A stretch of DNA of 64,000 bases. Source: an uncultured delta proteobacterium (lineage in GTDB: Bacteria > Myxococcota_A > Polyangia > Polyangiales > Polyangiaceae). Under the pieces are notes generated by a model, which worked only from the letters and a program-made list of their open reading frames with translations, searched no databases and had not been told where the DNA came from. Made by a program: the position numbers and the translations under genes. Shown here piece after piece: positions 2,771-41,717 of this stretch (position 1 is the stretch's first letter; each line of letters starts with the position of its first letter). The DNA is taken from positions 989,297 through 1,053,296 of the forward strand of contig CAWHDJ010000018.1 in NCBI GenBank assembly GCA_963827955.1. Direction: 5' to 3'.

Positions 2771-3144
2771 CGTGATCTCCTCGGCGGCGAGACGGCCACC
2801 GGGCCACCAGGCCCCCACTCCTCGACGATGTCCTTGTGGGCGTCGTACACCTCACGACGCGCCGCGGGGGTCAGCTTGGTCCACGCCGTTTCGAGGATTG
2901 TTCGGAGGTCACCGACCTCGTGATCCGGCTCCGACTCGCGCCCGTGCACTTCGGCGGCCTCGAGCAGCGCGGCGAGCTTGTCGCGACCTTGCTGTACGAC
3001 CGCGGGCTTGGCCTCGAGCTGGCTGCGTGCAGCCGCGCTTCCCGTCTGCCTGCGCCAGCGGTCGATAGCCTCCTCCGCGTCCGCGCCAGCGACCTTGAGG
3101 CGGTGCGGCTTGCCTCGAACGAAGATGCACCAGAGGTCATTCAT
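2767..3144 (-). CDS. small hypothetical protein carrying a 'DLWxIFVRG...EEAI(D/R)RWRRQT' domain
   Basis: 125-aa ORF. Paralogous to the C-terminal part of the gene at 3191..3835. The ATGA overlap with the downstream gene indicates translational coupling. Confidence 0.5.
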   Translation of the reverse strand: MNDLWCIFVRGKPHRLKVAGADAEEAIDRWRRQTGSAAARSQLEAKPAVVQQGRDKLAALLEAAEVHGRESEPDHEVGDLRTILETAWTKLTPAARREVYDAHKDIVEEWGPGGPVAVSPPRRSR

Positions 3145-3190
3145 GGGTAGCTCCTCTTGCTCGCGGCGTCGGAGGGTGATCTCCTGGCGA

Positions 3191-3835: not shown

Positions 3836-3854
3836 GGGATGCTCCTCGTGGCTC

Positions 3855-4454
3855 TCATGTGGGTCCGCACGCGTCGCCGAAGCAGCCGGCGGGCAGGATC
3901 CACGGGTCGATGATGACGGGCTCGTCGAACGTCGTGGAGAGCGCCGCGCGGATGTCCTCCGCACGCATGCCCTCGCCGTGAAGGCCCCCGAACGGGTGGC
4001 CCTGGTTGGCCATCTGGAGGACGCTTCGGTGCCGATCGATGGTCTTCCCGAAACGCTTCTCGTAGTCGGCGATGCGCTGGAACTGCTCCGGGTTCACAGC
4101 ACGGAGGGAAGCCCACTGGTCGGGGCTGCCGAAGATGCAGCCCGCGCACGACACGCGACCCCAGCCGAGGCGGTACGCGGGGTGCGGGTTGACGTGGCAA
4201 TGCTCGATGAGGGCCCAGACCTGCTCGGCCTTCCAGCCGTGTACGGCCCGCCAGCGATTGATCGTCCGCGGGGTTCTTCCGTTCCGCAGGTCGGTGTCAT
4301 CCGCCTCGAACACCGCATAGCTCTGCCGCTTCTTCGACTCCTCGCCGCGCTCACCCGTCAACACCAGCGTTCGCCGATTGTTGAAGCGCTCCTGGTTGCG
4401 CAACGCGGCTCCGGCGACCATGATTTTGACGTTTGCTTCATGATGCACCTCCAT
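3855..4454 (-). CDS. PAPS-reductase (CysH/DndC) family protein, C-terminal portion only; lacks the N-terminal PP-loop
   Basis: 'LTGERGEESKKRQ' fits the G-x-R-x-x-ES-x-x-R family motif, and 'SCAGC' is the C-terminal Cys pair. There is no SGGxDS motif upstream. Only 250 nt separate it from the divergent antiporter gene. Confidence 0.5.
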   Translation of the reverse strand: MEVHHEANVKIMVAGAALRNQERFNNRRTLVLTGERGEESKKRQSYAVFEADDTDLRNGRTPRTINRWRAVHGWKAEQVWALIEHCHVNPHPAYRLGWGRVSCAGCIFGSPDQWASLRAVNPEQFQRIADYEKRFGKTIDRHRSVLQMANQGHPFGGLHGEGMRAEDIRAALSTTFDEPVIIDPWILPAGCFGDACGPT

Positions 4455-4706
4455 CGTGAGGTCGGTTCGGATTGTGGGAAATGCAGCGTCTCGCTCTCCG
4501 CCGTCCCGCTGAGCCAAGGGCAAAGCCCTGGCCGGCCGCTTCCTCGTCGCGCCCTTCCGGCTCTCGTGCGTCCGGTCTTCGGAGACGACGCGGCACGCAG
4601 GCGACCTGGCGCTTGATCGTTCCCTGCCGAGATCCCTTGCCGCCGCGCCGGCGCCGCGGGAACTCCCCCGACCATGAGCGCTCTCTTCCACCTCCGCGAG
4701 TAGCCC

Positions 4707-5957
4707 ATGGGCTCCGCTTCCGATCCCGTCGCCCACCTCGCCCTGGTGCTCGGCCTGCTGCTCCTCGCCGCCCGCCTCTGCGGCGAGCTTGCTGCCCGCG
4801 TGGGCATGCCCCAGGTGCTCGGCGAGCTCCTTGCCGGCGTCGCGCTCCGCCTCCTGCCAGGCGCTTTCTTCGGCGACCTCGGGACAGAGCCGGCCCTCGA
4901 CATGCTCGCCCGCCTCGGCGCGCTCGTGCTTCTCTTCGACGCCGGCCTCGCCCTGAGCGTGCGCGACGTCCTCCGCGTTGGCGGCGCGGCAGTTGGCGTG
5001 GCAGTCCTGGGTACGGTCGGCTCGTTCCTCTTCGGCCTCGGCGCGGTCACCTGGCTCCTTCCCGTCGCCAAGCCGGCCACGCGCGTGTTCCTCGCGGGCG
5101 CGCTCACGGCGACGAGTGTCGGAGTGAGCGCGCGGGTGCTCAAGGACGTCGGCCGGTCCACGCGCACCACGGTCGAGGCGCGCACCATCCTCGGCGCTGC
5201 GGTCATCGACGACGTGATCGGCCTCCTGGTCCTCTCGCTCGTGACCGGCTGGGCCACGAGCGGCGCGCTCGCGGCTTCGGGCGGACTCTCGCTCGCCTTC
5301 CTCATCCTCAAGACCGCCGTCTTCTTCACCGTCCTGCTCACCCTGGGCCCGCGCCTCGTCCCCGGCCTGCTCCGCTTCTCCGCCCGCCTCCGGACGCGGA
5401 GCGCCCTCGTGGTCACGGGCCTCGCACTCTGCTTCCTCCTCGCCTGGGCCGCCGATGCGATTGGCCTCGCTCCCATCGTCGGCGCCTTCACTGCTGGCCT
5501 CGTGCTTGAGGAGGCGCACTGGCGCGCGTTCCTCGACCGGGGCGAGCGTGGGCTCGACCAGGAGGTCGAGCCCCTCAGCGCTTTCCTCGTCCCTCTCTTC
5601 TTCGCTCTCCTCGGCGTGCGCACCGACCTCCGCGCTTTCGTCGACGCTTCCGCCCTCGCCCTCGCGCTTGGTCTCACCCTCGCCGCCGTCCTCGGCAAGC
5701 TCGCATGTGCCCTCGGCGCCGCCCGCGGCTCGAACCGCCTCACCATCGCGTTCGGGATGATGCCGCGCGGAGAGGTCAGCCTCGTCTTCGCGAGCCTGGG
5801 GCTCTCGCTCGGCGACGAGGGTCACAAGATGCTCGACCGGCGAGCCTACTCCGCCCTCGTGATGATGGTGGTGCTGACCACGCTGATCACGCCGCTCGGC
5901 CTGAAGTGGAGCCTCGGGCGGCAGCCCCGCAGCGCGCCGCCGAGTGAGCCTCAGTGA
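4707..5957 (+). CDS. monovalent cation:proton antiporter (CPA1/CPA2 superfamily, Kef/NhaP-like membrane domain)
   Basis: 416-aa polytopic membrane protein with many hydrophobic helices and a fold typical of Na+/H+ or K+/H+ exchangers. The large antisense ORF 3855..6176 opposite it is a shadow ORF. Confidence 0.8.
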   Translation: MGSASDPVAHLALVLGLLLLAARLCGELAARVGMPQVLGELLAGVALRLLPGAFFGDLGTEPALDMLARLGALVLLFDAGLALSVRDVLRVGGAAVGVAVLGTVGSFLFGLGAVTWLLPVAKPATRVFLAGALTATSVGVSARVLKDVGRSTRTTVEARTILGAAVIDDVIGLLVLSLVTGWATSGALAASGGLSLAFLILKTAVFFTVLLTLGPRLVPGLLRFSARLRTRSALVVTGLALCFLLAWAADAIGLAPIVGAFTAGLVLEEAHWRAFLDRGERGLDQEVEPLSAFLVPLFFALLGVRTDLRAFVDASALALALGLTLAAVLGKLACALGAARGSNRLTIAFGMMPRGEVSLVFASLGLSLGDEGHKMLDRRAYSALVMMVVLTTLITPLGLKWSLGRQPRSAPPSEPQ

Positions 5958-6072
5958 CGACTGCACGGGTGAGAGGGCGGCGGGGACTACCGGGAAGGGT
6001 AGCGCAAGCGAGGCCACGAACTCGCCGACTACGGTGTTGACGTGCGCTCCATGATGCACCGCCCTTGCGAGA

Positions 6073-8353
6073 TCAGTGTGCGGCATGGGAATGACCCTTC
6101 CGCGTGTGCTTGAGCTTGATGATCCGGAGTCGCGAGAGCGTCGCGGGGTCAAGCTTGAACCAGAGCGGACGACCATGGCCGCCGCGGTCGCTGGGCTTGA
6201 GCCAGCGCCGGGCGACCCAGTAGCGAACGGTCTCCAGCGAGACGTCGAGCTGTGCGGCGACGGCGCGCAACGAGTACAACCCGTCGGACCGCTGGGGAGG
6301 GGTCACCCACTTCTTCTTGACGTTGAGGTCTTCGAGTCGCGCGATTGTTGCGTCGTCGAGCTTGAACCAGGCGGTGGGCCCTGGACCGCTGCGCGCGCTG
6401 GGGACGAGCCAGCCCCGCGCGACCCAATAGTGCACGGCGCCTGCGCGAACCCCGAGGCGCTTGGCGACCCCTCGGAGAGAGTACAAGCCGTCGGAGCGCT
6501 GGTAGGGCGGAGTGCGCGGTACCGACTCAAGAGCGTGACGTCTCCGAACCCCGTTGACGGCCCCCTCTTGCCACTCGTTGCCGAAGCGACTGCGAAGCCC
6601 TTGACGGTTCAGTTCCTGAGCGATCTGCGCGTTCGTCTTCCCTTGCTTGATGAGGGATTGGATCAGCTCAACAAGTGCGCTCTCGCTCGTTGCATCTCTC
6701 GGAGGCCGCGCGCGTGGGACGGTGAGGTCGGTGACGGCGCCCGTGCGCCAGAGGACCTGGATGCGCGTCAACGGCTGCGGGACGTCGATCGGCGTCAGAG
6801 TGACATGCTGCACGAGCATGCGGAGGAGGTTCTTGCGGTCGGCATGCGTCGTCGTATCCGCGTCCCACACCTGCCGCAGGTCCTTGGCGAGCGCGAGAAT
6901 GCGGGTGCGGTCGGACGCCGAAAGGTCGAGCTTGTCCCGCTGACGCGCCTCCTCGTATTCACGCTCGACGGTATCCAGCTCTTGGAGCTTGGAGTTCCAC
7001 TCGTGCTCCAGGGTGCGCGCGACGACGCGGTTGTCAGGATCCACGGCCTTGTAGCGGCGCTCGGCCAGGCGCGCCTCGTACCGCGCGCGATCGAGGCGAA
7101 GCTTCCACTGCTTGTCGAGCTCCGCCGTCTGCCGCTCCGCCTGACGCACCACCTCCAGACCGAGCTCGATCTCGGGCACGTGCACCGTGTCCAAGAAGAG
7201 CTTGGTGACCGCCTCCTCGATGCGGGGCCCAGAGACCATCCAGCAGACCGGATGGCCGCCGCCGTACCTGAGCGGCGCGCGGCAGTCATAGCTGGGATCA
7301 GCATGGCGGCCGACGTAGCGGACGGTCATCTTGCGCCCGCATCGACCGCAGATCGCCAGGCCCTGCAACAGCGCGGAGCCTCTGCCGGGTGCACCGCGCT
7401 GGTCGGGAGCGCGGCGCGGCGCGTTGCTCTGCAACTTGCGCTGGTTCGCCATGAACTCCTCCCACGAGATGTAGGCCGGGTGGTGGTCGCGAATGCACAC
7501 CGTCCAATCGTCCTGCGCGCGCTTGCGGACGCCGCGGCGCACCTGCCCGTTGATCAGCATCCTGCGCGCCTCGTAGCGGCCGAAGGCGAAGGCGCCGGCG
7601 TAGATCGGGTTCTCCAAGACGCGCAGGACGAAGGCGAGGCGCGGAGCGTGCCAACAACGCTCCTGCGTCGTAGGATCGCGTCCCGGCATCTGAAGGCCGT
7701 GCGCCAAGAAGTAGCGCACCACGCCGCATGCACTTCCATTCAGGCGGAAGCGCTCGAAGAGGAGCCGGATCACGCGTTGAACGTGCTCGTCGGGATCGAA
7801 GCGAGGGGTTTCCTGACCCTCGTCCCAGATGTAGCCCGCCGCCGTCTTGAACCGCAGCGCGCCCCGGCGCGCCTTGCTCAACTTTCCGCCGTGCAGGCGC
7901 AGACGCAGCCAGGTCAACTCGACCTCGCTCATGGTGCCCTTGAGCCCCAGCAACAGCCGGTCATCCGGGTTGCGAGGGGTGAAGACCGACTGCTCGTCGA
8001 GCAGGATCACGTCGGCCAGTCCGCAGAGATCCAGCAGCCGGTACCAGTCCGCGGAGGAGCGTGCGAGGCGCGAAACCTCGAGCGCAAAGATGGCGCCGAC
8101 TCGCCCGTGGGCCGACGTCCTCTGCGAGGCGCTTGAAGCCGTCGCGCCGCTCCGTGCCCGCCGCGCTCTGCCCGAGGTCCTCGTCGATGATCTCAACGCG
8201 CTCCGCGGGCCAACCGAGCTCGATGGCGTGTTGCTTCAGAGCGTACTGGCGCGCGGTCGACTCGGGGTGATTGCGCACCTGCCGCGGGTCGGACTGGCGC
8301 GGGTAGACGACCGCTCGGCGCTCCAGGTGGGTCGACTGGATCTTGTCGTTCAT
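6073..8353 (-). pseudogene. large serine recombinase (integrase), split by a single-base frame discontinuity at about 8105-8115. Carries a tandemly duplicated C-terminal ~60-aa HTH-like module.
   Basis: N-terminus 'AVVYPRQSDPRQ...' gives the Y-x-R-x-S catalytic motif in the frame of ORF 7961..9049. 'VGAIFALEVSRLARS', the recombinase domain, the Zn ribbon 'CGRCGRKMTV...C' and a coiled-coil lie in the frame of ORF 6073..8196. The C-terminus contains 'QRSDGLYSLR.VA..L.V....V.YWVAR.WL.PS' twice. Confidence 0.8.
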
Positions 8354-8802
8354 CACCGGCCTCCTTGTGCGCGCCGGCCCGGACGACCTTGAGCACGAGC
8401 GTCGCCCATGCTCCCAATAGGTCGCGCCGCACGTCCGTCGGTAGCGCGCCCAGTCGAGGTGGATCGGGTCGATCGATCGGGTGCGGTTGCATCCACGGGT
8501 CCGCTCGGGGGCTTGAGGTTGCCTCGTGGAGACTCCTGCGGCGGACGGTGCTGCCGGTCCAGCATGTCGGCGACGGCATCCGCGAGCTCCACCAGTCCAC
8601 GCGCGGACAGCAGAACCTCGCGACCCCCGACCTGTGGCGGTGCCACAGGCGGGCCGCGGTCGGTCCACTCCTCGGGCAGCACGATCATCTCGCGCTTGGA
8701 CCCCTCGATCTGAACGTAGCGGCGCCCGTCCGGCGCGGTGTACGCGTGAAGCAGGACGAACCGGCGTCCTCGGAAAGGATGGATCGGCAGGGTCACCGTC
8801 AC
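8353..8802 (-). CDS. small hypothetical protein immediately upstream of the recombinase and translationally coupled to it (GTGA and ATGA overlaps). Possible recombination directionality factor or accessory protein.
   Basis: 149-aa ORF. The N-terminal 90 aa are protein-like ('MTVTLPIHPFRGRRFVLLHAYTAPDGRRYVQIEG...'). Its stop overlaps the recombinase ATG. Confidence 0.45.
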   Translation of the reverse strand: MTVTLPIHPFRGRRFVLLHAYTAPDGRRYVQIEGSKREMIVLPEEWTDRGPPVAPPQVGGREVLLSARGLVELADAVADMLDRQHRPPQESPRGNLKPPSGPVDATAPDRSTRSTSTGRATDGRAARPIGSMGDARAQGRPGRRAQGGR

Positions 8803-9476
8803 GAAGCGCGAGGACTCGGTGATGTCGGGTGCATTCTCCGACGTGCGTCTTCGTGTAGGCCGAGCACCAGCGCTTCCCGAGGTCGCCCGTCTTCATCGGA
8901 AACTGCCGGCGATAGCCGGGCTTGTCGCTCTCGCCGCCCGCGCGCTCGAGCCCGTACGGAGTCTCGAACAGGTACGCCGCTGTCGGGGTTTGGTCGCGGA
9001 GCATCTCGCCCTCGAACCCGCCCACCTTCCAACTGAAGTAGATGCGCACGCCGAACGCCGCGGCGATTCTGGCGGCAATAGTCTCGCGTGCAGGGCCAAT
9101 CCATCAGCGTCGAGCCCTCACGGCCGTCGACGTCGTGATGCCAGAGCTCGATGCGTTCCTGTGGAACGCCGAGCAGCAGCAGCAAGAGCAGCAGCGCGAG
9201 GGAGTCCTTGCCGCCGCTGAAGGCCACGATGATCACGTCATACGAGAACGGGTCGACCGCGGGCTTGCTCGGCGTCGGTGCGAAGGCGACGTGACTCGGT
9301 GCGAACGCGAAGCGCTGCCACGGAAGCGGAGGGGGCGCATCACGTGCGAGCGGGCGCGACGACCGCAGGGCGCGGTCGGAAGAGGCTTCTGCAGTCGCTG
9401 CTCGCAGAAGGGCCCCGAGCGCGGACATCCGGCCCTGGTTGGGGGCAACGGAGACGGGCGCATCGAGGGCCGTCAT
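8799..9476 (-). CDS. PAPS-reductase family PP-loop ATP-pyrophosphatase (DndC/CysH-like), paralog B. Frame discontinuity near 9060; the 3' end is uncertain.
   Basis: 'VIIVAFSGGKDSLALL' is a PP-loop. The protein continues in another frame as 'FGVRIYFSWKVGGFEGEM...GLERAGGESDKPGYRRQF...KRWCS' (the R-x-x-ES motif). The ATG at 9476 overlaps the stop of the upstream gene. Confidence 0.55.
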   Translation of the reverse strand: MTALDAPVSVAPNQGRMSALGALLRAATAEASSDRALRSSRPLARDAPPPLPWQRFAFAPSHVAFAPTPSKPAVDPFSYDVIIVAFSGGKDSLALLLLLLLLGVPQERIELWHHDVDGREGSTLMDWPCTRDYCRQNRRGVRRAHLLQLEGGRVRGRDAPRPNPDSGVPVRDSVRARARGRRERQARLSPAVSDEDGRPREALVLGLHEDARRRMHPTSPSPRAS

Positions 9477-10495
9477 GAAGCCTCCTCGCTCACATACGAA
9501 GTGGCCGGGAGCCAGTCGCACCCCGTTGCCTTCGTGGCGCGCTCTGCCCGGCCGCACACCGGACACGGCATGCGCCGAGGGCGGTAGGGGGTCTCGATGT
9601 AGACGGCCAAGGGCGGCGCGCGGTAGCTGCCGTCGGGGAGCGTCCTGAACCCCATGATGGACAACTTCTTCCCGGCCTTCGTCGGCGGCTTGTTCGCCTC
9701 GAGCGCGGCCGTGCGCGCGAAGTCCCGGGGCAGCTCCCGCGCGAACGTCTGCCAGTCGCCGCGCGAGCCGTACGGGCAGAAGGTGCACGCGCTCTTCCGG
9801 GGCACGGGGAAGCCGAGGCGCTCGATGAGCGCTTGGCCCCGGCAGCGACACAGGTTCCGCTCGATCAACGGGAAACGGTTGTGGCGTCGGGCTTGGCCGG
9901 GCCGCTGTGCGCGTCGCCCGCCGGCGTTGGGGTCGTACGCCGCCCGCCCTTCCTCCGCTGCGTCGAACCCCACCCAGACCTCCACGTCGAGGCCGGAGAA
10001 GCGGTCGTCCATCCACCGCTCGAACCGCTCCACCTTGCCGACGATGGTGCAAATGCGGTCGGGGCCCGAGACGGGGATCTGGCGGCGCTCCTCCAGCCAG
10101 GCAAAGAGGGAGCGGCTTTCCCGCACGGGGTAGCTCGTGGTGTCGAGCGTCAGGAACTCGATGCCCTGGGCGGCGCAGAGCGGCTCGACGATCTCCCGGA
10201 TGTGGCTGTATGTGCCCGGCCACTCGCCCGGGTCGCGGCGCGCGGCATCGCCCACGTCGACGAACACGCAGACGTCGGGCGGCTCTCTCTGCTCGATGGC
10301 GTCGAGCAGCATCGCGAAGCTGTCGAGGCCCCCACCGTAGGAAAGCACACGGGGGCGCCGTGGTGCTGGCGCGCTCGCCGCTCGCAGCAGAGCCCCGAGC
10401 GCGGACGGGGAGTGCTGGCCTTCCGCGCTCGCCGCCCGCAACAGAGCGCCGAGCGCGGACGGCTGTGCGCGCGCGGCGCCAGGCACGGCGCTCAT
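9473..10495 (-). CDS. PAPS-reductase family PP-loop protein, paralog A. Its N-terminus carries two copies of the 'SALGALLRAASA' peptide.
   Basis: 'VLSYGGGLDSFAMLL' is a PP-loop. Several Cys motifs are present (CRCRG, CTFCPY, CPVCG). The ATG at 10495 overlaps the methyltransferase stop (ATGA). Confidence 0.6.
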   Translation of the reverse strand: MSAVPGAARAQPSALGALLRAASAEGQHSPSALGALLRAASAPAPRRPRVLSYGGGLDSFAMLLDAIEQREPPDVCVFVDVGDAARRDPGEWPGTYSHIREIVEPLCAAQGIEFLTLDTTSYPVRESRSLFAWLEERRQIPVSGPDRICTIVGKVERFERWMDDRFSGLDVEVWVGFDAAEEGRAAYDPNAGGRRAQRPGQARRHNRFPLIERNLCRCRGQALIERLGFPVPRKSACTFCPYGSRGDWQTFARELPRDFARTAALEANKPPTKAGKKLSIMGFRTLPDGSYRAPPLAVYIETPYRPRRMPCPVCGRAERATKATGCDWLPATSYVSEEAS

Positions 10496-11265
10496 GCCGC
10501 ACTGCTCACACGCGGGCGGATCGCGCTCCGCGCCGGTGGCGTCAGGAGCCGGGCCTCTACCGCCACGCGGCACCAGTGGGGGACGATGTCCACGGCGATG
10601 CAGCGCAGGCCCATCGCCCGGCAGACCGTCAGCTCCGGCCCCGTGCCGAGATACGGCACGACGACGACGTCCCCCCGCCGGAGCTTCGCCCTCTCGCGGA
10701 ACACCCACTCGACGAGCGCTACCGGCTTCTGCGTCGGTCCGAGGTGCGCCACGCCCGTCTCGCTTGCGCGTGCGACGCCGCGCCAGAGATGCGTGAAGCG
10801 ACGGATGGGGGTGCGGAGGTTGGTCCACGCCAACTCACCGTCACCGCCGTCGTTGCTGCCCGTTTCGGCGCGCTTGTCCCAGAAGAGCCACCCGCGCTGG
10901 TCGGGGAGCCGGCTCGCATAGTGGTTGGCGCCCCAGAGCACGATCCGAGGGAAGTGGAGAAGGTGCGACGGGTCGAACGGACGATCGTTGCCAGCCATCG
11001 GAGGCCAATCGTTCGCGCGCGGCCTGCCTCGGCCGCCGACCAGCCGGCCCCCGCGCCCGCGCCGAGCGCCGTCGAACCGCTGGCGGGGATCGAACGGCGG
11101 GTCCGCATGGACCAGCGCCACGTCCTCGGGCCGGAGGCCGAGGGCGCGGAGCCGTCGCGGAACGACCTCGCGGCAGTCGCCGGCGTGCACTTCGATGTCG
11201 CCGTCGTTGTAGACGAGCCCCGCCTCGGCCCGCGCAGCGCGAAGCCGCGCGGCGAGGCCGGACAC
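10492..11265 (-). CDS. beta-class N6-adenine/N4-cytosine DNA methyltransferase (CcrM/M.PvuII-like arrangement)
   Basis: Motif order is 'VALVHADPPFD' (DPPY/F), then 'GPTQKPVALVEWV' (HPTQKP-like), then 'VVVPYLGTGPELTVCRAMG' (FxGxG-like). A GTG start with an AAGGTGG RBS lies just after the TAA of the upstream gene. Confidence 0.75.
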   Translation of the reverse strand: MSGLAARLRAARAEAGLVYNDGDIEVHAGDCREVVPRRLRALGLRPEDVALVHADPPFDPRQRFDGARRGRGGRLVGGRGRPRANDWPPMAGNDRPFDPSHLLHFPRIVLWGANHYASRLPDQRGWLFWDKRAETGSNDGGDGELAWTNLRTPIRRFTHLWRGVARASETGVAHLGPTQKPVALVEWVFRERAKLRRGDVVVVPYLGTGPELTVCRAMGLRCIAVDIVPHWCRVAVEARLLTPPARSAIRPRVSSAA

Positions 11266-11281
11266 GCGCCCGGCGCCCACC

Positions 11282-21400: not shown

Positions 21401-23242
21401 GCCCGGGAAGGTCTTGCTCGTGGGGTCGAGCTGGATATCCCCCGCCGGCGTGTGCAGCGTCAGCATCCCGTACGCGACGTGCTCCACTGAGAACCCCGGC
21501 AGGCGGCCCGCTGCGCGCGCGAAATCCGAGTCGACGTAGATGCGCTCGCCATCGCGGTCGAAGGTCCAGTCGTCTCGGTGCGGCGGGACGTCATGCCCCC
21601 AGCGCGTGGGCTTGTGCTCGTTGTAGGTCTTGCGGAGCTTGAACGCCGTCGTAAGGCGCTCCAGCAATTCGGAGACCGCCTCGACGTCGCAGCCGAGCAT
21701 GGTGGCGATCTCTTCCAGCGTGCGGTACTCGCCGAGCGTCGCGGCAAGCACGCCCTCCTCGGTGGCGCAGGGAGTCTTCGCCTCCAACCCCTGGGAGAGC
21801 GCCTCGGCCCGATGCTCGACGACCGCTGCCGCATCCTCGGCGGTCGGGATGCCCGCCGGCGCCGCCGGTGCCGGCTCGGCGGCGAGTGCCGTTTGGGCGT
21901 CGGCAAGAAGCTCCGAGAGCCCGGAGGCCGGCGCTCTGTCCTGCTGCCGGGACGAAGGCACGGGAGCGGCTTCGGCGTTGCCCTCGGCGCGGCTCCAGAC
22001 GCCGTACTGCTCTTGGAGATCCACGCGCCCGCCGCGCGCGACACCGAACATGCGAAAGGCCCCCACCTCGCCTTGGAGCTTCGCGGATGTCGTGCGCAGG
22101 AGCTCAGACCGTTGCCTTGCAGGGGCCTGTTCGCGCTCGATGCGGTTCAGCAGACGGCCCAGCGCTGCGCCCAACGTCTTGCCGTCGCTGCCGAGCGCCC
22201 ACGCCGCTGCCACCTTCTCGCGGAGGAAGCGCAAGAGGTGCTCGCGGCGCTGCGCGTCGATTGCCTCGGCCTCGGCCAGGAGCCCGGAGGCGCGCTCGAA
22301 ACGCTCGACGGGAGGGGCGTCGCCGTCCTCGATGTCCTGCGCGAGCTTCTCGAGCGCGACCGCGGCGGCCCGGCCCTCGCTGAGCTGGTCGGCCCGTTGC
22401 CGCTTCGCTCGCAGGTCGGCAATGGCAGCCGCGGGGGATGCCGTGGCAGCGTCCACTACACGCGCGGCGTCCTCCTCGTCCTCACGTGATGCGGGCCGCG
22501 GCGGCGGGATCCGGACCGCGAACCCGGGCGACACCGCCGGGGGGGAGGCGCCTGCGGCAGACGGCTCGATCACGGAGCGCCGCACCCTTGCGGTTGCGCC
22601 CTCGACCGCCAGCCTCTTCCATGCGTCCGCCGCAGCATCGGCACGCTGTGCGATGCTTACGGCGCGGGGCAGGTCGACGATGGTGCGCTCGGCGCCTCCT
22701 CGGTCTCCGCCCATCGCCTGGATCGCGCCGATGACGCCCTCCCGGTCGGGCCCGACGTCGACGAGCACCACGTCCCAGAGGGTGCTCGGGGGCGCCTCGG
22801 GGATGAGCGGCCTCGACGGCAGGTAGTACGCGGTGAGGCCCCTGCCAATCGGCATGGCGACGATGAGCTTCTCGCGGACGAGATCCGAGAGGAGGTTCAC
22901 CGCGGAGGGGTCGTCGAGCGCCGCGAGGATCGCGCGCTGGCTCGCTGGGCCCTCGGAGAGCATGGAGAGGATCCGCTCACGGACCTCCCGCACCAGGGCC
23001 GCTTCGCGCTCGCGTTCTGCCGCGCGTGTGGCTTCCGTCGAGGCGTAGCGGGCGGCGCGCTCTGCATCGGTCTCCAGGCGCCACCAGCCCGGGTGGGTGA
23101 ACGGCGTGCGGTCGCCATCGTCATGCTCGATGACGACGTAGCCGTCCTTGCTCCGCACCTCGACGACCACGCCGGGCGGGCTACGCGGGGTCACGGTGCT
23201 GTTGTCGACGACGCGGTCGCCCACCTCGAAGCGCGGCAACAT
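12402..23242 (-). CDS. giant multidomain protein (~3,600 aa). Contains an N6-adenine-type DNA methyltransferase module, an SNF2/DExx-box helicase and a long repeat-containing C-terminal region. It is DarB-like. One frame discontinuity in a G-run at about 17405-17415 joins ORF 17219..23242 to ORF 12402..17927.
   Basis: 'LVISNPPYGVRGE' is the NPPY motif IV. 'AFDVGVGKTYTG' is a Walker A. 'LLIVDEAQNYKN' is motif II. 'QRNGRAWRQGNQ' is the helicase motif VI (SNF2). The C-terminus holds (GEAEx)n tandem repeats and an internal duplication ('...GDIEFDRMRGVEFPGQSGVSHWIYGKGLAATMEALGMGDL' / '...GRVIFDPEGSAKRVGMTYTVRGQAHVVNALLDAMGLGDL'). Confidence 0.75.
13941..14098. repeat. 15-nt tandem repeat encoding (A/T)E(A/T)GE units within the giant gene
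   Basis: Read directly: 'gcctcgccggtctccgcc' units are repeated about 10 times. Confidence 0.7.
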
Positions 23243-26200
23243 GCCGATCTCGGACGCACGGATGGGCGAAGCTCGGCCGTGCGGGACACGAACTCGGCCG
23301 GGCGCTCCACGAGCACCTGGCTCTCGAACTGGCGCGCGATGTCGAGGACCTTATCGGCGAGAGCCTCGTCACCGCGCAGGTGCCGGATCGCGGCTCCGTA
23401 CACCACGCGGGTCTTGATGATGTTGTCCCACCAGTGGTCCTGTGCGGCCCCCTCGATCGCGGCTTCGACCTCCCTTGCCCGCGCCTCGTCTCCGAGCAGG
23501 CGGGTGAGGGCCTCCAGCATCGGGCTCGGCACGGCCGAGCGGAGCGTGTACCAGCGCTCGTCATCCTCGACGCGCATGTCGAGGATGCCTTCCTCCCGCA
23601 TCTGCCGAAGCAGGCCGACGACGCGACGACTCTCCTCGCCGGAAGCAGTCACGCCGGCGACCTCGCGCGTGATCACGCGAAGAGGGGCCCCGCCTCGGCG
23701 CTCGTCGAGGTACGCCACGATCTTCGCGCGGGCGGCGTCATCGTCATCCTTGCCCTCGGGCGGCCGAGGGGACGAGGACGCCGCGGCCTCGGCGGTGGCA
23801 AGGAGCTGCGAGAGGGGGCTGCTGGTGGGTGCCGGTGCGCTCGGCGGGCTCGGCTCGGGCGGCCGAGGGGAGGGCATCCGGAAGCCCGTTGCTGCCGGTG
23901 CGCTCGGCGGGCTCGGCTCGGGCGGCCGAGGGGAAGGCATCCGGAAGCCCGCTGCCGGGGCCGCGGGCGCGGTGGCAGGCCCCGGCTCGTCGGCGCGGAG
24001 CTCGAGCGACGCGAGCCTCTGCGCCACGCCGCCGGGCAGCGTGGACCACTCCGTGATGTCCTCCGGCGTGTAGCCCAGAAGCTCGAGCCGCCAGGCGAAT
24101 GCCGGATCCTCGCCCGCGCGGCGGAGCGCTTCGGCGATGTCGCGGTAGTTCGGCGACATGTCGGCCTCTGCCACGGAGCGCGTTTGGGCCCAGCGCTCGC
24201 GGGTGGTGGGCCCGCGCTCTCCGTGCTCGATCCCCCAGGCCGCGCGCTCCAAGATCGAAGCGGTTCCGCGGCCCTCGCCCGCTGCCCTTGTCCGCAGGCG
24301 ATCCGCGGTCGTCATGACGTGGTCGAGCCCGACGCCGCTCTTTTGGCCGCGAGCCTCATCTGCGATCTGTTGCAGCACGACGTGTGCTCGCGCGTCCCCG
24401 GCGAACTCGCCCACGCTGTCCAGGTACCGCGCGAGCGCGATCTTCAGCCGCACCTCTCCCGGCGCCGGCGTCGCGGGCGCCGCCGGCCGCGCCCACCGCT
24501 CCACCGTGCGGAGGAGAGCGTCGACCGTCGGAAAGTCCTCGCGCATGTTCGACGAGATCGAGTGCGCCGCGCCGGGGTCCTTGCCCCCGCCCCAGTGCAC
24601 CGCTTGCGCGTGGAACCAGAGCCGCCCGAGACCCTGCTTCTCGGCCCAGGGCGTCCCCAGGTGCGGCTTCACCGTCCATCCCCGGTCCTTCAGGCCGTTG
24701 AGAAGCATCGCCTTGACGGTGCGGAAGGCGGGGGGCTTCGGGGCGCGGGGGGGAGGCGAGGGGCGCGCCTCGGTCGCCTCCGCTCCGCGAGGAGTGGGCG
24801 CGACGGCGAGCCAACGTGCGAGGGTTGCAGGCTGGGGCGTCCCCTCCGCGATCCAGCGCGTCATCACTTGCGCGAGTGGTTCGCCGATCGTGAGCCCTGC
24901 CGCGGCGAGCGCAGCCCGGTGGTGCAGCATCGCCGCGTGCGCCATCTGCCAGCGCGCGGTCTCCTGGCTCTGCTTGTCGGTCTCGTCGAGGAGCCTCGCC
25001 TTGTGCGCAAGCGCCTCGGGGCCCGGGTCTCGAAGCGCCTCACGAATGGCGGCCCACTTCGGGTGCTTCGGTGCGCGCGATGGACCAGGCTCGGCCGTCG
25101 GCGTAGACGACGCTGCCGCCTGAGCGGCTGCAAGACGCTGCGAGAGCACGGAGGTCGGCCCCGCGCCGTGCCCGGACGAGGGGACCGCCGGTTCCGCCGT
25201 CGCCATCGGCGTCGAACCCGCCACGCGGGAGGCGATGCTGTAGAAGTTGACCCCCGATCGCGGATCGTAGCGGGTGTCGACCACCTTCTCCTTGGCGAGC
25301 TTGACCAACTCGTCGCCGACGCGTCGCCGGTCCTCCGTCGCCGTGCCGCCAACGTCGTCGTGGACCATCCGCAGCGTCGCCTCCCCCACGCGGGAGAGGT
25401 ACGTGAGGATCGCGATCCGGCTCTTCCCGGCCTCGCCCTGAAGCTCCTCGGTGGGGACCTTGTTGGGCGCGAGCGGCGCAGCGGATTCCTGTGCTTGGAG
25501 CGCGGCATCCTCGCCGAACTCGTCGACGATGGCGGCGACAACCCGGTCGAGCGCCTCGTCCTGGGCGCGCTTCGTGTGGGCGTCCACCGGCCGCTTCAGA
25601 GCCCTCACGGCGCCGAAGAGAAAGCTCCGCCAGTCGCTAGGGTGCTGCCGCGCGAGGAGCCCCTTGAGGGTCGCGCTCTGTGCCACCCCTGCGAAGCGCT
25701 CGGCAGCGGCGCCCGTCTCGAAGGTGAGTACGGGGCTCCCGTTCTCGCGCTGGACGACGAAGCGATATCCCTCGGGGGTGGTTGTCACCAGGCGGGCCAC
25801 CCGAAGGTTCCCCACGGGGACCGACTCTGCCGTGCCGCCCGTGGGGACCTCCGCCCGCATCGCTGCCCCTACGATGCTGGAGACTTCGTCCTCGCTGACG
25901 CCTGCCTCTCGCGCGGCGTCGAACGCCTGCTCGGCCCGCGCCGACTCTTCTCGCGTGCTCTCGGGGAAATGCTTCGCGCGCACCGCCACGAGCGCTTCCC
26001 CAAGCCGCACCCGGGCTTCCGCCTTTCTGGCGTCCGCCCCCACCACGGGGAAGCGGGCGGCATCGAGACGGTCCGCCACCTCGCCGAACGAGCTTCCCCG
26101 CTCCTCCAGGTAGAAGACCCTCGTCTGGCGAACGTCAATCGAGAAGGTGATGCCGTAGGGCTTGGACTCCCCGGGGGCGTTCGAATGGAAGGCGACGAAA

Positions 26201-28419
26201 TTCGCGTCGGCGTTCTCGGGGAAGTAGTAGAAGGTCGCCTCAAGCGACGTCTCGCCCGCGTGGCTCTTGTGGAATACGTCCGTCTTCGGCAGCGTCCACG
26301 GCACGCCGGTCTGGAGGATGAGCTTCTCGTGGAGCGCTCGCAGAAACGCGTCGGACTCCGCGGTGAACGCGTCCGCCCGGGCCCGGGATCCTCCAGCTTC
26401 TCGAGGCGCGCGCTCCGACCTGCGAACGCTACGAGCAGGCGTAGGCGACTCCGCCGGGAGCAGCCTCGACTGCGGCCCGTGCGCCTCCAGCGGCGTCTCC
26501 ACGCGCCCAGCGCCCGCCAGGTGCTTGACCTGGCGCAGCTCCTCCGCCGTGATGAGGAGTGCATGCGTTTCGAGCTGTTTGATGACCGCGGCGCGCAGCT
26601 CCGTCGCGGGCAACGTCATCTTGGCGGCCTCGCCGGCGATGGTGCGGAGCCGGTATGCGGCGATCTTCGCGCCCTCACGCTCTGCGGCCACGGCCTGCCG
26701 CTCGAGGTACGCGACGATCGCCCGGCGTTCCTCGGCCGCTGCCTGGGCGACGCCAAGCATTTGCGAGAGGGCCGAAGGAGCACGTGCCGCCGCGGCCTCA
26801 CGCTCCGAGGCCGTGCGCTGTTGAGCGAGCGCCGTGAGGGATCCCGGAGGCGGACGCCGCGAGGACGGGGGGGCGCCTGGCGTGGTCGGAGTGGGCGGGG
26901 GGGCCTTCCGGACCGGCGGAAGGTCCAGCTTGCCAAGCCGGATGAGCGGGTCCTTCCCCAACCGCGCGGCTTCGAGGAAGCGGTCTACGTCGAGCGACGC
27001 GCGGAAAGCAGCGAGCACGCCCGCGCGCTCGTTGGAAGGATAGCCGGGCGCGGCGTGGATCTCGTACCCTTTGCCAAGCATGCCCGTCCAGCGGATGGGA
27101 CTCTCTTCGCCTTCGATCTGGCCAAAGGCACCGCTGAAGTGGAAGCTGTAGCCCGGCCAGGGTGCGCTCTGCTTGTAATGCCGGCCCATGTATCGCCAGA
27201 ACTCCGTGTCGACGTAGAGCTTGCCGCTTTCCTCGTGCACGGGGACGTGGACGAACACTGCTTCCGCGACGGGCGTTTCTTGCGCGACACGATAGAGTTT
27301 CAGGCCGTTCGCGGTCGTGTGAGCCGTGAGGTGCCCAATCGCGACCAGCGTGTGCACCCACTCGCGCGCCAGCTTGCGGCGCGCCTTGTTGGCCTCGCCC
27401 ATCATGCCGCCGACCTTCAGCACGATCTGCTCGATGCTGGCGTCGCCGACTCCGGTGACGTACGCGACGATCTCTTTTTCCTCGGCCTCGGGGACGGGCG
27501 GGCCGAGCTCGGCGAGCGCCGTCCACCGGAACGGCGAGTCGATCGCTCCCGGCACGATGCGAGCCTTGTCGGCGAGCGCCAGGCGCTTCAACGCGGCTTG
27601 GATGGACTCGGCATCCCACCCGACGCGCACCTCGATCTCCTCGACCGTTCGAGGAGTGCCAGCAATCTCACCGAGGACCTGGCGCGCGATACCCTCCTCC
27701 GGCGCAACCATCCGGAACGGCGCCGTGCCCGGCGCCGCGGCGGACGTGCGACTCGCCTTCGCGTACTCGAGCACCACGTCCCGGAGCGTGAGCCCAGCCG
27801 ATTCCGGGTCGTAGAGCTTGGCCTCAGCGTAGACGACAACGAGGTTCTCGCGCTCGAAAAGCGCGCCGGGCGGTACCTCGGGCGCCGCGGCGTCGACCGC
27901 CGCCTGGAACGCACGCACGGCCCGCTCCGGTTGGATGATGGTCGCCCCGCCGCGACCGTCGTTCTCGAACGAACCGACGTTTTCCCCGTTCCAGAAGATG
28001 CGGCCAGCCCAGCGAGGTGTTTCCTCGCCCTCGCCGCGCTCGTCAAAGACCAGCCGGAGGCCACCGCCGATGTCGACCTCGGGCTTCGCGAGAGCGGCCG
28101 TGGGTGCGGGCGTGGCTCGGATGGCGTCGTAAGCGGCCCGCATGACCGCGCGCGTGACGCGAGCTTGGAGCGCGGGGTCCTCGACGAATTTGGCCATCAA
28201 CGGCGCGCCGTCGCGCTCCACGCGCGCCGTCGCCATCTCGATAAGCCTGCGCGGAAGGACCAAGCTGAAGTTGTCGTAGCTGTTCGCCTTGGCCCACCCG
28301 ATAACGGCCGGATCGCGCTGCGCTTCCTCCGTCAAGAGCTCGACGAGCCCGCGCTCCTCGGCGTCGCGGAGCAGCGCCGCGAGTCGGCCGCCAGGCGGGG
28401 ATTGAGGGGGAGGCGCCAT
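23191..28419 (-). CDS. large hypothetical protein (1,742 aa). No recognisable catalytic motif. Contains a 57-nt tandem duplication.
   Basis: Continuous protein-like ORF. The ATG at 28419 lies immediately 3' of copy 1 of the conserved upstream element. The gene overlaps the start of the giant gene by about 50 nt. Confidence 0.6.
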   Translation of the reverse strand: MAPPPQSPPGGRLAALLRDAEERGLVELLTEEAQRDPAVIGWAKANSYDNFSLVLPRRLIEMATARVERDGAPLMAKFVEDPALQARVTRAVMRAAYDAIRATPAPTAALAKPEVDIGGGLRLVFDERGEGEETPRWAGRIFWNGENVGSFENDGRGGATIIQPERAVRAFQAAVDAAAPEVPPGALFERENLVVVYAEAKLYDPESAGLTLRDVVLEYAKASRTSAAAPGTAPFRMVAPEEGIARQVLGEIAGTPRTVEEIEVRVGWDAESIQAALKRLALADKARIVPGAIDSPFRWTALAELGPPVPEAEEKEIVAYVTGVGDASIEQIVLKVGGMMGEANKARRKLAREWVHTLVAIGHLTAHTTANGLKLYRVAQETPVAEAVFVHVPVHEESGKLYVDTEFWRYMGRHYKQSAPWPGYSFHFSGAFGQIEGEESPIRWTGMLGKGYEIHAAPGYPSNERAGVLAAFRASLDVDRFLEAARLGKDPLIRLGKLDLPPVRKAPPPTPTTPGAPPSSRRPPPGSLTALAQQRTASEREAAAARAPSALSQMLGVAQAAAEERRAIVAYLERQAVAAEREGAKIAAYRLRTIAGEAAKMTLPATELRAAVIKQLETHALLITAEELRQVKHLAGAGRVETPLEAHGPQSRLLPAESPTPARSVRRSERAPREAGGSRARADAFTAESDAFLRALHEKLILQTGVPWTLPKTDVFHKSHAGETSLEATFYYFPENADANFVAFHSNAPGESKPYGITFSIDVRQTRVFYLEERGSSFGEVADRLDAARFPVVGADARKAEARVRLGEALVAVRAKHFPESTREESARAEQAFDAAREAGVSEDEVSSIVGAAMRAEVPTGGTAESVPVGNLRVARLVTTTPEGYRFVVQRENGSPVLTFETGAAAERFAGVAQSATLKGLLARQHPSDWRSFLFGAVRALKRPVDAHTKRAQDEALDRVVAAIVDEFGEDAALQAQESAAPLAPNKVPTEELQGEAGKSRIAILTYLSRVGEATLRMVHDDVGGTATEDRRRVGDELVKLAKEKVVDTRYDPRSGVNFYSIASRVAGSTPMATAEPAVPSSGHGAGPTSVLSQRLAAAQAAASSTPTAEPGPSRAPKHPKWAAIREALRDPGPEALAHKARLLDETDKQSQETARWQMAHAAMLHHRAALAAAGLTIGEPLAQVMTRWIAEGTPQPATLARWLAVAPTPRGAEATEARPSPPPRAPKPPAFRTVKAMLLNGLKDRGWTVKPHLGTPWAEKQGLGRLWFHAQAVHWGGGKDPGAAHSISSNMREDFPTVDALLRTVERWARPAAPATPAPGEVRLKIALARYLDSVGEFAGDARAHVVLQQIADEARGQKSGVGLDHVMTTADRLRTRAAGEGRGTASILERAAWGIEHGERGPTTRERWAQTRSVAEADMSPNYRDIAEALRRAGEDPAFAWRLELLGYTPEDITEWSTLPGGVAQRLASLELRADEPGPATAPAAPAAGFRMPSPRPPEPSPPSAPAATGFRMPSPRPPEPSPPSAPAPTSSPLSQLLATAEAAASSSPRPPEGKDDDDAARAKIVAYLDERRGGAPLRVITREVAGVTASGEESRRVVGLLRQMREEGILDMRVEDDERWYTLRSAVPSPMLEALTRLLGDEARAREVEAAIEGAAQDHWWDNIIKTRVVYGAAIRHLRGDEALADKVLDIARQFESQVLVERPAEFVSRTAELRPSVRPRSACCRASRWATASSTTAP
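23827..23945. repeat. 57-nt direct tandem duplication encoding 'GFRMPSPRPPEPSPPSAPA' twice
   Basis: Read directly, inside CDS 23191..28419. Confidence 0.65.
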
Positions 28420-28535
28420 GGCTTCCCCGAGCGTGCGCCGCCGCTCGATGCGCGCGCAAGGCGCTTACCCGCCTATGGATTTCACTTATCAGCCAGGATC
28501 CGTGGAAGTTCCTAGACCCGTTGTGGGATGATCCC
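28420..28535 (-). promoter_or_regulatory. conserved ~115-bp upstream element, copy 1. AT-rich invariant core TGATAAGTGAAATCCATAG in the gene orientation. Ends at the ATG of the 1,742-aa gene.
   Basis: Aligns over its full length with copies at 33713..33828 and 36254..36367. It is the only AT-rich 19-mer in this 70% GC region. Confidence 0.6.
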
Positions 28536-29855
28536 AGGTTCGAGCTTGAGGATGCCGGTCCACCTCCGACGCGCGGCGATGGCGGCGGTCTTGCGGGTCG
28601 CTTCCACGCTGCCCACCGGGATCCAGTCCTCGCCCCGGAGCTGGCTCACCTGGAAGACGTGCGCCGCCGCGCTCCCCTTGCTGGAAGCGGGGCTCGTATC
28701 CTCGAGCAGGGGCAGTCGGCGCTTCGCCGGAACTGGGCCGCTCGCATCCACGAACTGGGGCGGACCACCTACCGGGCCGGTGTACTGCTCCTCGGGAGGC
28801 TCCATCGCGAGGTAGCGGTCCAGCATCGCCGGGTCCCGCCGCACGGCACGGATGAACTCCGCCATGGCCCCCGGCTTCGGGATGGCGCCGCGGAAGCCCT
28901 TCACGGTCCTGCCCCAGAGCCCTTCGATGCCTCGCAGACCCGCCTGGGCGGCGTCCTCGATCGCGATGATTCGGTCGGCAAGCACCGGATGGTCGCGCAC
29001 GAGGCGCGCGATTTCCCAGGGCTTGCTTGCCGGACAGAAATAGCATGCCGACTTGGGCGGGATTGGGATGCCTGCTGCGCGCAGCTCCGCCTTGATGCGA
29101 GCGCGATCCCACTGCCACTCCCTGAGCGGATAAACGTATTCGTAGTGGTCATCGTTCCGCAATTGGTGAGCGCGGCGGGAGTCGCGATAACCGTAGTCGT
29201 AGCCGATGGCTTTCACCACCTTGCCGCCACGTGCCCAGAGCGCCTGCGCGCGCGGGTCCTTCGCGAGCCACGCCTCTTGCGGCCGGATCTTCCACTCGGA
29301 ACTACACGACTTCTTACCGAACGCCTGACCCGGGAGCGACTCGTATGCGAGGCACTTCTCGCCGAGGGTCGAGTACGGCATGCCCGTGACCTTCGACACG
29401 CTGGGGTTGCTGCGCACCATCACGAACTCCGGGAAACCGATGCTCCGCAGCCAGCGTTGCCGCTCCTCGCGGAATGCAATGGTCTCCGGCCATTCGTCGC
29501 CGGTTTCGGCGTGCAGGATAACGTCGGGCCTGACGCCCAAGCGGTGCAGGCCCTCCAGCATCCCCGTCGAGTCGACGCCCATGCCGTCCGCCACCACGAG
29601 CAGGGGCCGGGCCCAGGGCGGCAGTGCGATGAACCGGCGTAGCGTCATGGGGGGCTGCGAGCCGCCCGCTGGCGCCTGGCCGGTGCGCGCGCGCAACCTC
29701 GTCGACGGGGTCGCGCGCGCCCGGCGCTTCCTCGACGGCGCCTTCGCCGGGGCATGCGCCTCGGCGGCCTCGCTCGCTGCTCGGAGCTGCGCTGCGAGTC
29801 CGCCCTGCGGGGCTGCTGCCGCCCGCAGCATCCCGGCAAGCAGGCTCGACGCCAT
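28512..29855 (-). CDS. PAPS-reductase family-like protein, paralog C (degenerate PP-loop). N-terminus has the 'LLAGMLRAAAA...LAAQLRAAS' motif.
   Basis: 'LLVVADGMGVDSTGML' is PP-loop-like. 'GYRDSRRAHQ' fits the R-x-x-(E)S-x-x-R motif. 'ACYFCP' is the C-terminal Cys pair. Confidence 0.5.
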   Translation of the reverse strand: MASSLLAGMLRAAAAPQGGLAAQLRAASEAAEAHAPAKAPSRKRRARATPSTRLRARTGQAPAGGSQPPMTLRRFIALPPWARPLLVVADGMGVDSTGMLEGLHRLGVRPDVILHAETGDEWPETIAFREERQRWLRSIGFPEFVMVRSNPSVSKVTGMPYSTLGEKCLAYESLPGQAFGKKSCSSEWKIRPQEAWLAKDPRAQALWARGGKVVKAIGYDYGYRDSRRAHQLRNDDHYEYVYPLREWQWDRARIKAELRAAGIPIPPKSACYFCPASKPWEIARLVRDHPVLADRIIAIEDAAQAGLRGIEGLWGRTVKGFRGAIPKPGAMAEFIRAVRRDPAMLDRYLAMEPPEEQYTGPVGGPPQFVDASGPVPAKRRLPLLEDTSPASSKGSAAAHVFQVSQLRGEDWIPVGSVEATRKTAAIAARRRWTGILKLEPGIIPQRV

Positions 29856-41660: not shown

Positions 41661-41717
41661 GCGAATTTCTCCTTCCGCCCGATCAGAGTGGCCCCCGCCG
41701 GACAAGAAGAGCGTGAG

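Follow-up and report, generated by a model that had tools for sequence, protein, structure and literature searches.

A 64,000-nucleotide stretch of DNA from an uncultured delta proteobacterium of the Polyangiaceae (the window, by which we mean that whole stretch) raises the question of what several genes of the phosphoadenosine phosphosulfate (PAPS) reductase family are doing within 26 kb of one another, next to genes for DNA methyltransferases. We find three such genes, here called A, B and C, each encoding a protein with a PP-loop, and each a member of a family that is already annotated (as "PAPS reductase family protein," a label carried by genes of more than 1,500 plasmids) but uncharacterized. 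Judged by its sequence, B is the widespread plasmid protein of that name; in this genome it is a dead gene, whereas A and C are intact. Our preferred reading, to which we give a probability of about 0.45, is that the locus is an establishment or anti-restriction island, in which giant methylase-helicase proteins are accompanied by PP-loop, iron-sulfur (Fe-S) enzymes that modify nucleic acid, with A and C working as a pair.

The number of genes follows from the way in which B is broken. Motif searches and matches to the PHROG family phrog_424 ("phosphoadenosine phosphosulfate reductase") bear out the PAPS-reductase-like frames that the first-pass annotation of this DNA had placed on the minus strand (coordinates are collected in the table below). 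The family is matched by A (E 1.5e-23, for the open reading frame [ORF] 9473-10828), by C (E 3.4e-25), and by two separate pieces of B, the N-terminal piece at E 8.9e-7 over profile positions 159 to 212 and the C-terminal piece at E 1.9e-19 over positions 269 to 379. When 9476-8849 and 4427-3855 are joined, the resulting 398-amino-acid (aa) product aligns end to end, across the junction, with uninterrupted homologs of 320 to 400 aa at 60 to 72% identity. There are thus three genes, with B in two pieces, and not the four that had been counted: the supposed truncated copy is the C-terminal half of B, and it runs from KIMVAG through TGERGEESKKR and SCAGCIFG to GDACGPT and the stop codon. The Pfam family PAPS_reduct (PF01507) is matched only by this half (E 8e-6, profile positions 99 to 172 of 175; 26.4 bits against a cut-off of 22.5), and full-length B homologs carry PF01507; A and C have no Pfam match at E <= 0.01. 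A is 100% identical to protein P0121, and C to P0241.

The DNA that separates the two pieces is itself a mobile element, so that a mobile element sits inside a gene of another mobile element. Its large serine recombinase has two MerR-type helix-turn-helix domains besides those listed in the table, with the N-terminal RQS-containing catalytic region in an adjoining frame. At its two ends the insert has an imperfect inverted repeat, GGTGCAT...CGTC, that matches at 14 of 22 positions; this repeat was read by eye, since the automatic inverted-repeat search picked up too many chance pairs of GC-rich sequence. Crossover is placed at an AA inside the codons of the family-invariant RWCSAY(L/T)KI, and deleting 4428-8848 from the sequence restores a full-length B that aligns with its homologs through the junction. 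An independent assembly, Logan contig L023 (run ERR11523675), which spans the 3' end of A, the N-terminal piece of B, the junction and the start of the recombinase (window 8106-10010), has the same junction at 99.8% identity over 1,894 bp, which shows that the insertion is real. B is a dead gene here, split in its most conserved codons. Like known integrative elements with large serine recombinases, the insert has Resolvase, Recombinase and Zn-ribbon domains, a target in conserved coding sequence, imperfect repeats around a short crossover, and a small upstream DUF5372-like ORF; unlike them, it measures only 4.4 kb, has just one cargo gene, and encodes a recombinase whose frame is interrupted in the present assembly. 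A gene conserved among mobile elements, such as B, may serve as an attachment site for another mobile element.

Three single-base frame changes complicate the picture. B has one extra A at about 9068 (CAGAATCGCC in place of the expected CAG-ATC-GCC), the recombinase has one extra G at about 8113 that shifts its frame, and the giant methylase-helicase gene is short of a base near 17400-17430. For this last change, an additional A at a GATC site was considered as the cause and ruled out, because no single-base deletion restores the frame; it is the window in which a base is missing there. The frameshift in B is absent from L023, a contig that ends exactly at the frame change in the recombinase. 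All four differences between the window and L023 fall at GAT[C/T]G sites, of which the stretch holds few (5 GATCG and 10 GATC): three times the window has GATC where L023 has GATT, and the extra A of the window is at one of these sites. The pattern suggests either that bases were miscalled at a modified motif or that a methylated cytosine is a hot spot of deamination. The frame changes are probably sequencing errors, and for B this is indicated by the absence of the change in L023 together with its position at a GATC site of systematic disagreement.

The three genes are not a multiplication in the sense of local duplication; each is a member of an old and widespread family of mobile-element genes. 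The A and C families are sisters (hhalign 99.6%, E 5e-25, 27% identity), whereas the relation of A to B is only distant (78%, E 2e-5), and each of the three has orthologs at 60 to 87% identity on many other contigs. Because A and B are so distant and each gene has such close relatives in other elements, A, B and C cannot be regarded as local duplicates. Each family keeps its own signature. The A family retains VLSYGGGLDS, ICT...KVER, GFEAGEE..RA, CRC, SACxFCPY and a C-terminal CxVCG...GC, and A itself has the Cys clusters ICT, CRC, SACTFC and CPVCG...GC. The B family retains SGGKDS, WHHDVDGxEGSTLMDW, RWCSAYLK, TGERxEES..R and SCAxCIFG; the C family retains GMGVDS, CSxKWK, IGYD....D..R and KSACxFCP, with G93, D95 and S96 invariant. 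The PP-loop is canonical in B (SGGKDS) and takes the forms (Y)GGGLDS in A and GMGVDS in C, each invariant within its family, and at least three cysteines are invariant in every family. C had been called degenerate; since GMGVDS is conserved throughout its family, the loop is the norm there and C is not a degenerate copy. The R-x-x-ES-x-x-R motif ascribed to all copies is found only in B (RGEESKKR), the corresponding segments being GFDAAEEGRA in A and GYDYGYRDSRRA in C, whereas the C-terminal Cys pair that had also been noted does not vary within any of the three families (SACxFC in A and C, SCAxC in B). The PP-loop, in short, is intact in each family. Four relatives of A and C (P0359, P0164, P0325 and P0446) have about 300 to 330 extra residues at the same profile position (about 202 to 205 in A, about 230 in C); one of these insertions has a LAGLIDADG domain, and they look like inteins in a mobile-element enzyme.

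The distribution of the families shows where such genes reside. Genes of the B family were found in 1,578 plasmid records, of which 1,152 are of conjugative plasmids, most commonly from Klebsiella, Salmonella, Escherichia, Citrobacter and Acinetobacter, and in the IncC backbone it stands beside repA. The C family is found on 142 plasmids, and in at least four of the records found by both searches it is about 2 kb from B. The plasmid collection has no member of the A family proper (best match 29% identity) and the viral collection only three loci, the A protein itself having only distant phage matches; in metagenomes the family is common, the A profile recovering 4,012 clusters at 50% identity with E <= 1e-3, 88 of them at E <= 1e-30. 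On sphingomonad plasmids, genes for a strawberry-notch helicase, ParB and an ArdC-like zincin come first, then B, three small genes and C, followed by DUF2493 and SSB, which is a typical establishment or anti-restriction neighborhood. Among the plasmid and phage proteins annotated as PAPS reductase family (PF01507, phrog_424), exemplified by WP_000946102.1 of IncC, WP_133192384.1 of a sphingomonad, and ASV43984 and ASV43981 of Pseudoalteromonas phage KB12-38, B is at home, with 42 to 54% identity over about 90% of its length and with SGGKDS, RWCSAYLK, TGERxEES and SCAxCIFG in common. A and C share the PHROG of that family, and the plasmid homologs of C are 37 to 46% identical to it. The present locus differs from these plasmid and phage examples in having all three genes with B interrupted, and in that A and C fall under no Pfam or NCBIfam model.

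The three families also travel together. Local tblastn of window proteins against related loci found B, A and C inside 7.5 kb in L005/L006; C, a NUDIX gene, one further gene, DUF6884 and B in L002; B followed by C in L007; and B, DUF6884 pieces, DpdA, A and a C5 methyltransferase in L003. In phage KB12-38 a methyltransferase is followed by a C-like gene and, further on, by B, a C5 methyltransferase and a DndB-like gene. The arrangement with several paralogs thus recurs in other elements. Moreover, hidden Markov models (HMMs) built here for the families identify fused proteins: P0350 is C followed by A, P0353 is A followed by C, P0347 is A with a divergent C-like domain, and P0398, a giant of 1,632 aa, joins A to a canonical PAPS_reduct domain. 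These fusions and the co-occurrence in unrelated loci support the earlier suggestion that the paralogs work together. Fusion in both orders is good evidence on this point for A and C, which most likely act together, probably as a heteromer.

The DNA methyltransferases that had been noted beside these genes are indeed there. An N6/N4-type enzyme, which also matches a PHROG DNA methyltransferase (E 9e-11) and the PADLOC MTase_II model, overlaps the start of A by 4 bp, and the stop of A overlaps the start of B; these overlapping ends make methyltransferase, A and B one translationally coupled unit. The methyltransferase probably starts at 11265, which would give it an N-terminus reading GLAARLRAARA. 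Further along the same strand, an Eco57I/N6 DNA methylase domain is joined to SNF2 N- and C-terminal helicase domains in a giant protein that occupies two ORFs in this assembly. In the related locus L001 the SNF2 helicase portion is one gene that aligns to both frames of the window, and both of the co-linear giant proteins (12402-23242 and 23191-28419) are conserved there. Polyvalent proteins of conjugative elements and phages have been described by Iyer et al. 2017 (PMC5512222), and the combination here of a DNA adenine methylase with a SWI2/SNF2 helicase, within a conserved pair of giants, is of that kind. That account makes no mention of PAPS-reductase or PP-loop domains (PMC5512222); the PP-loop enzymes are separate genes here and lie inside a giant protein elsewhere (P0398). 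From about 1.8 to 36.3 kb almost all credible genes are on the minus strand, with 4707-5957(+) as the sole exception. The region from about 1 to 36.3 kb forms a single long minus-strand array, which looks like the establishment or anti-restriction part of an integrated or chromosome-borne mobile element. We use the label "mobile element" because of the homology to plasmid and phage-like loci and the polyvalent proteins.

The fold of these proteins is that of the PP-loop superfamily. AlphaFold models are confident (mean predicted local distance difference test of 85.8 for A and 87.0 for a B homolog); A is closest to adenosine phosphosulfate (APS) reductase, NcsA and TtuA, and the top matches of the B homolog are TtuA, APS reductase (template modeling score [TM] 0.60 on the target), FAD synthase and CysH. 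Among the structural matches of A and B, TtuA, NcsA and TtcA rank first or equal first, and the resemblance, at the level of the superfamily, includes a PP-loop and a three-Cys site; A also has a C-terminal CxxC...C element that resembles the zinc finger of TtuA. The likeness is distant (11 to 17% identity, TM 0.33 to 0.42), and a profile search of the PDB gave E 0.6. Unlike those enzymes, A, B and C are set in a mobile element with DNA methyltransferases and not in tRNA metabolism, and no sulfur-carrier (TtuB-like) gene was seen. The only sequence-level PDB match to the A and B profiles is chain C of 21fy ("PptA," 270 aa; E 0.03 to 0.36), over the C-terminal Cys-pair region with the pattern Y.LG...C..C..G..W...R..P..F. 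It is the only solved structure with such similarity and may be the first characterized relative.

How A, B and C might act can be outlined from their fold. Known members of it adenylate an oxygen, after which a nucleophile displaces AMP, and DndC, TtuA, NcsA and TtcA deliver sulfide through a [4Fe-4S] cluster on three cysteines; DndC can be supplied by the IscS of the host (PMC10853773). By analogy, A, B and C would bind ATP at the PP-loop and adenylate an oxygen of a nucleic acid, for which the DNA of the element itself is the likeliest candidate. Sulfide from a cysteine desulfurase of the host would then be delivered by a [4Fe-4S] cluster on the invariant cysteines, of which each family has at least three, and would displace AMP. 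We speculate that, together with the methyltransferases, the resulting modification would mask incoming DNA from host restriction.

Several points weigh against this reading. No functional study of the A, B or C families was found in the searchable literature, and the structural matches are only at the superfamily level (TM 0.3 to 0.4; 11 to 18% identity). Enzymes of this fold also produce amides, nitriles and lysidine, and in systems of the Cap9/QatC type they modify proteins (PMC13376578); because of this other chemistry, sulfur and DNA are both guesses. B is inactive here, so any task that A and C have in this genome is carried out without it. The fusion of NUDIX to A (P0128 and P0131) and the NUDIX gene beside C in L002 point to a possible free-nucleotide substrate. 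Among the genes identified in the window, none is for transfer, replication or the capsid, and three single-base frame changes within about 10 kb could reflect either an error-prone assembly or a decaying element. A bolder form of the proposal is that A, C and, where it is intact, B make up a thiolation machine of mobile elements that lays down an undescribed nucleic-acid mark, such as a thiolated base, on the DNA of the element at its entry into a new host; a shared N-terminal "LAALLRAA" peptide would serve to assemble, package or co-deliver the enzymes and their companions. TtuA, the best structural match, thiolates 5-methyluridine, the ribo form of thymidine; in this full form, we consider the proposal unlikely.

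Canonical DNA phosphorothioation in the style of Dnd, Ssp or BREX type 4, with sulfur from host IscS and with unrecognized partners in place of DndD/E or SspB/C, is also an account to which we assign little weight. A, B and C have in common with DndC, SspD and BrxP the PP-loop ATP-pyrophosphatase fold, at least three conserved cysteines, a mobile or defense setting and a weak HMM similarity, and their best PADLOC matches are SspD for A (1e-10) and C (1.5e-5) and BrxP for B (2.8e-11), with B also resembling SspD and DndC. The PP-loop with three cysteines resembles DndC, a PP-loop enzyme whose 4Fe-4S cluster is held by three cysteines (PMC10853773); host IscS can substitute for DndA (PMC10853773, PMC12839542); and a prophage paper likens phage PAPS-reductase-like proteins to DndC (PMC8092301). 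However, the PADLOC matches are partial and weak, that to DndC reaching only E 6e-5 over about 85 residues, and the scores lie far below family thresholds (for B, 16.1 bits against a cut-off of 290.4 for the NCBIfam DndC model TIGR03183; A and C have no NCBIfam match). They are also shorter than BrxP and are without DUF4007 or the extra domains described for it (PMC12839542). In the PADLOC scan for partners, which covered 19 of the ORFs in the 64 kb, none of DndA/B/D/E, SspA/B/C, PglZ or BrxL, and no Dpd partner, was found, and the A, B and C families are usually found with none of these partners, on thousands of plasmids.

Slightly less probable, in our view, is action on free nucleotides or in a base-exchange pathway, whether of the 7-deazaguanine type or by another change at the level of deoxynucleoside triphosphates, with polymer DNA left alone. 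The NUDIX associations described above would fit such an activity, as would L003, in which a DpdA-family gene (9066-10004) overlaps the start of the A homologue (10001-10969) in one operon with B, the DUF6884 pieces and the C5 methyltransferase. In addition, the DUF6884 protein of the window weakly matches YaaA/DUF328, the family of DpdC (PMC12839542). Against this, tblastn of the window with the DpdA of the related locus found no homolog, DpdA stands beside A in only one of six A loci examined, and no QueC, QueD, QueE, FolE or other preQ0 gene signal was found. The link to DpdA, attractive in L003, was accordingly dropped as a general feature. QueC, Cap9 and QatC have the PP-loop fold as well, whereas the window proteins have no QueC HMM match: neither Pfam nor NCBIfam gave a match at the level of QueC or CysH, and tblastn of the window with IscS and QueC queries found nothing. 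The claim that the genes stand without Dnd, Cys or Que partners therefore holds as far as these searches reach.

IbrA acts as a PAPS-reductase-like regulator, and A, B and C could likewise modify no nucleic acid at all, serving as protein modifiers, regulators or anti-defense factors of the QueC-like Cap9, QatC or IbrA type. QatC is a QueC homolog that is used in defense (PMC13376578), and a preprint describes candidate defense operons in which a PAPS reductase goes together with a nucleoid-protein sensor (10.64898/2026.04.06.716658). We find this improbable given the repeated adjacency to DNA methyltransferases of unrelated families and the position of the genes among ArdC, ParB and SSB on plasmids; nor was a ParB/IbrB-like partner found in the window.

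More improbable still is that the whole array is a decaying, non-functional remnant in which the copies are inactive. The insertion in B and the single-base frame changes in B, the recombinase and the giant helicase would be expected of such a remnant, yet A, C, the methyltransferase, the DUF6884 protein and the 1,742-aa protein are intact, A and C keep the residues that are invariant in their families, and the frame change in B is of the doubtful kind described above. Ordinary assimilatory duplicates of CysH or APS reductase for sulfate reduction are scarcely credible. PAPS_reduct matches B and APS/PAPS reductases are among the top structural matches, but the B family scores only 22.4 bits against a cut-off of 154 for CysH (PRK02090) and 21.5 against 235 for APS reductase (TIGR02055), A and C match neither, the C-terminal ends are unlike the CysH redox tail, the families reside on plasmids and phage-like contigs, and the neighbors are methyltransferases, helicases and mobile-element genes without assigned function, with no cys genes nearby.

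The remaining features of the array are listed below. G+C content is about 70% along the entire window, so that raw ORF lists are crowded with false frames, and credible reading frames were picked by their G+C at third codon positions (GC3).

Features of the window (positions are those of the 64,000-nucleotide stretch)
Feature	Coordinates	Strand	Basis and remarks
Conserved gene, no assigned function	3191-3835	-	Immediately downstream of B
Paralog B, C-terminal piece ("truncated copy" of the first-pass annotation)	3855-4427	-	Starts KIMVAGAALRNQ at 4427; RGEESKKR at 4326-4349
Serine-recombinase mobile element, 4.4 kb	4428-8848		Separates the pieces of B
Na+/H+ exchanger, insert cargo	4707-5957	+	Pfam Na_H_Exchanger E 3.9e-49; GC3 0.90
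Large serine recombinase of insert	6073-8353	-	Pfam Recombinase 1.3e-19, Zn_ribbon_recom 1.5e-10, Resolvase 1.5e-6
Small ORF upstream of recombinase, overlapping its start	8353-8802	-	Weak Pfam DUF5372, E 1.4e-3, 19 bits against cut-off 25
Paralog B, N-terminal piece	8849-9476	-	SGGKDS at 9201-9218; ends ...GKRWCSAYTK at insertion junction 8849
Paralog A, 340-aa PP-loop protein	9473-10495	-	SYGGGLDS at 10319-10342; phrog_424
N6/N4-type DNA methyltransferase	10492-11376	-	DPPF motif; Pfam N6_N4_Mtase E 8e-5
Conserved gene, no assigned function	11282-12439	-	Between methyltransferase and giant protein; internal LSALLHAAKESA motif; homolog in L007
Giant "polyvalent" protein	12402-23242	-	Pfam Eco57I/N6_Mtase, SNF2-rel_dom, ResIII, Helicase_C; about 3,600 aa if read as one
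1,742-aa protein	23191-28419	-	No confident domain; N-terminal RLAALLRDA; conserved in L001
Paralog C, 447-aa PP-loop protein	28512-29855	-	ADGMGVDS at 29568-29591; CSSEWK, SACYFCP; phrog_424
SpoIID-domain (cell-wall lytic) protein	31626-33242	-	Pfam; in the array, upstream of C
DUF6884 protein, about 800 aa	33862-36252	-	Pfam DUF6884 E 4.5e-28; three N-terminal LAALLxAA repeats
Peptide sites in A	10430-10453, 10376-10399	-	Regular expression
Peptide site in B	9396-9419	-	Regular expression
Peptide site in C	~29760-29855	-	Regular expression
Peptide site in methyltransferase	11230-11265	-	Regular expression
Peptide sites in DUF6884 protein (three repeats)	36127-36252	-	Regular expression
Peptide site in 1,742-aa protein	~28350-28419	-	Regular expression
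Peptide site in ORF 11282	11990-12013	-	Regular expression

Two of these neighbors belong with B more widely, as clustering of the genes around it in related loci shows that the DUF6884 family and the family of 3191-3835 recur adjacent to B. In L002 the DUF6884 family is the immediate neighbor of B, and in L003 it stands between B and A; homologs of 3191-3835 flank B in L001 and follow it in L002. The latter gene has no Pfam, PHROG or PADLOC match. The DUF6884 protein, besides its weak Pfam match to YaaA/DUF328, matches PADLOC PDC-M57A, a candidate defense gene, at E 2e-25; DpdC is a DUF328 protein (PMC12839542). L007 likewise encodes SpoIID proteins (109-1869 and 3059-4252), one fused to glutaredoxin and the other with a weak GDSL-lipase match; proteins of this kind fit an apparatus for DNA transfer or entry, and no such apparatus was identified. 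Beyond the array, on the plus strand, are an extracytoplasmic-function-type sigma-70 factor and two adjacent Ser/Thr kinase genes (41688-43040, 50707-52602 and 52448-54931), and L002 also has a sigma factor of this type nearby. In the rest of the window, Pfam detects only that sigma factor, the two kinases and a PEGA domain, and a PHROG search for phage structural and transfer genes in 10 ORFs from it gave no matches. Megablast of 8800-30000 against plasmids found no near-identical DNA.

At least seven proteins of the array carry near the N-terminus a short peptide rich in Ala and Leu, often repeated (SALGALLRAASA, GLAALLQAA, RLAALLRDA, GLAARLRAA). A has two SALGALLRAASA repeats, and C has SSLLAGMLRAAAAP and GLAAQLRAA. 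A strict regular expression recovers the peptide solely from these real frames, with no match in the five remaining frames of the 64 kb. Variants such as FADLAAHLAGP and FTALAALLGAP are present in homologs elsewhere, and a variant stands at either end of the DpdA of L003. The peptide could be a shared tag for docking, packaging or delivery.

Taken alone, this window is a modest case, one more element of its kind, with two curiosities of its own in the recombinase element inside the most conserved codons of B and the N-terminal peptide common to many of the array proteins. The points of general interest, and worth experiment, are the co-occurrence and fusion of A, B and C, the shared N-terminal peptide, and B as a target of integration. 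The B family, for which, as for its A and C relatives, we found no tested function, belongs to the backbone of more than 1,500 sequenced plasmids, including the clinically important IncC. The way in which these families travel together and fuse, the retention of their PP-loop and cysteines, and their methyltransferase and anti-restriction neighbors suggest a widespread and unrecognized modification or protection of nucleic acid at entry into the cell. Were this so, it would be relevant to the way in which resistance plasmids get past restriction barriers.

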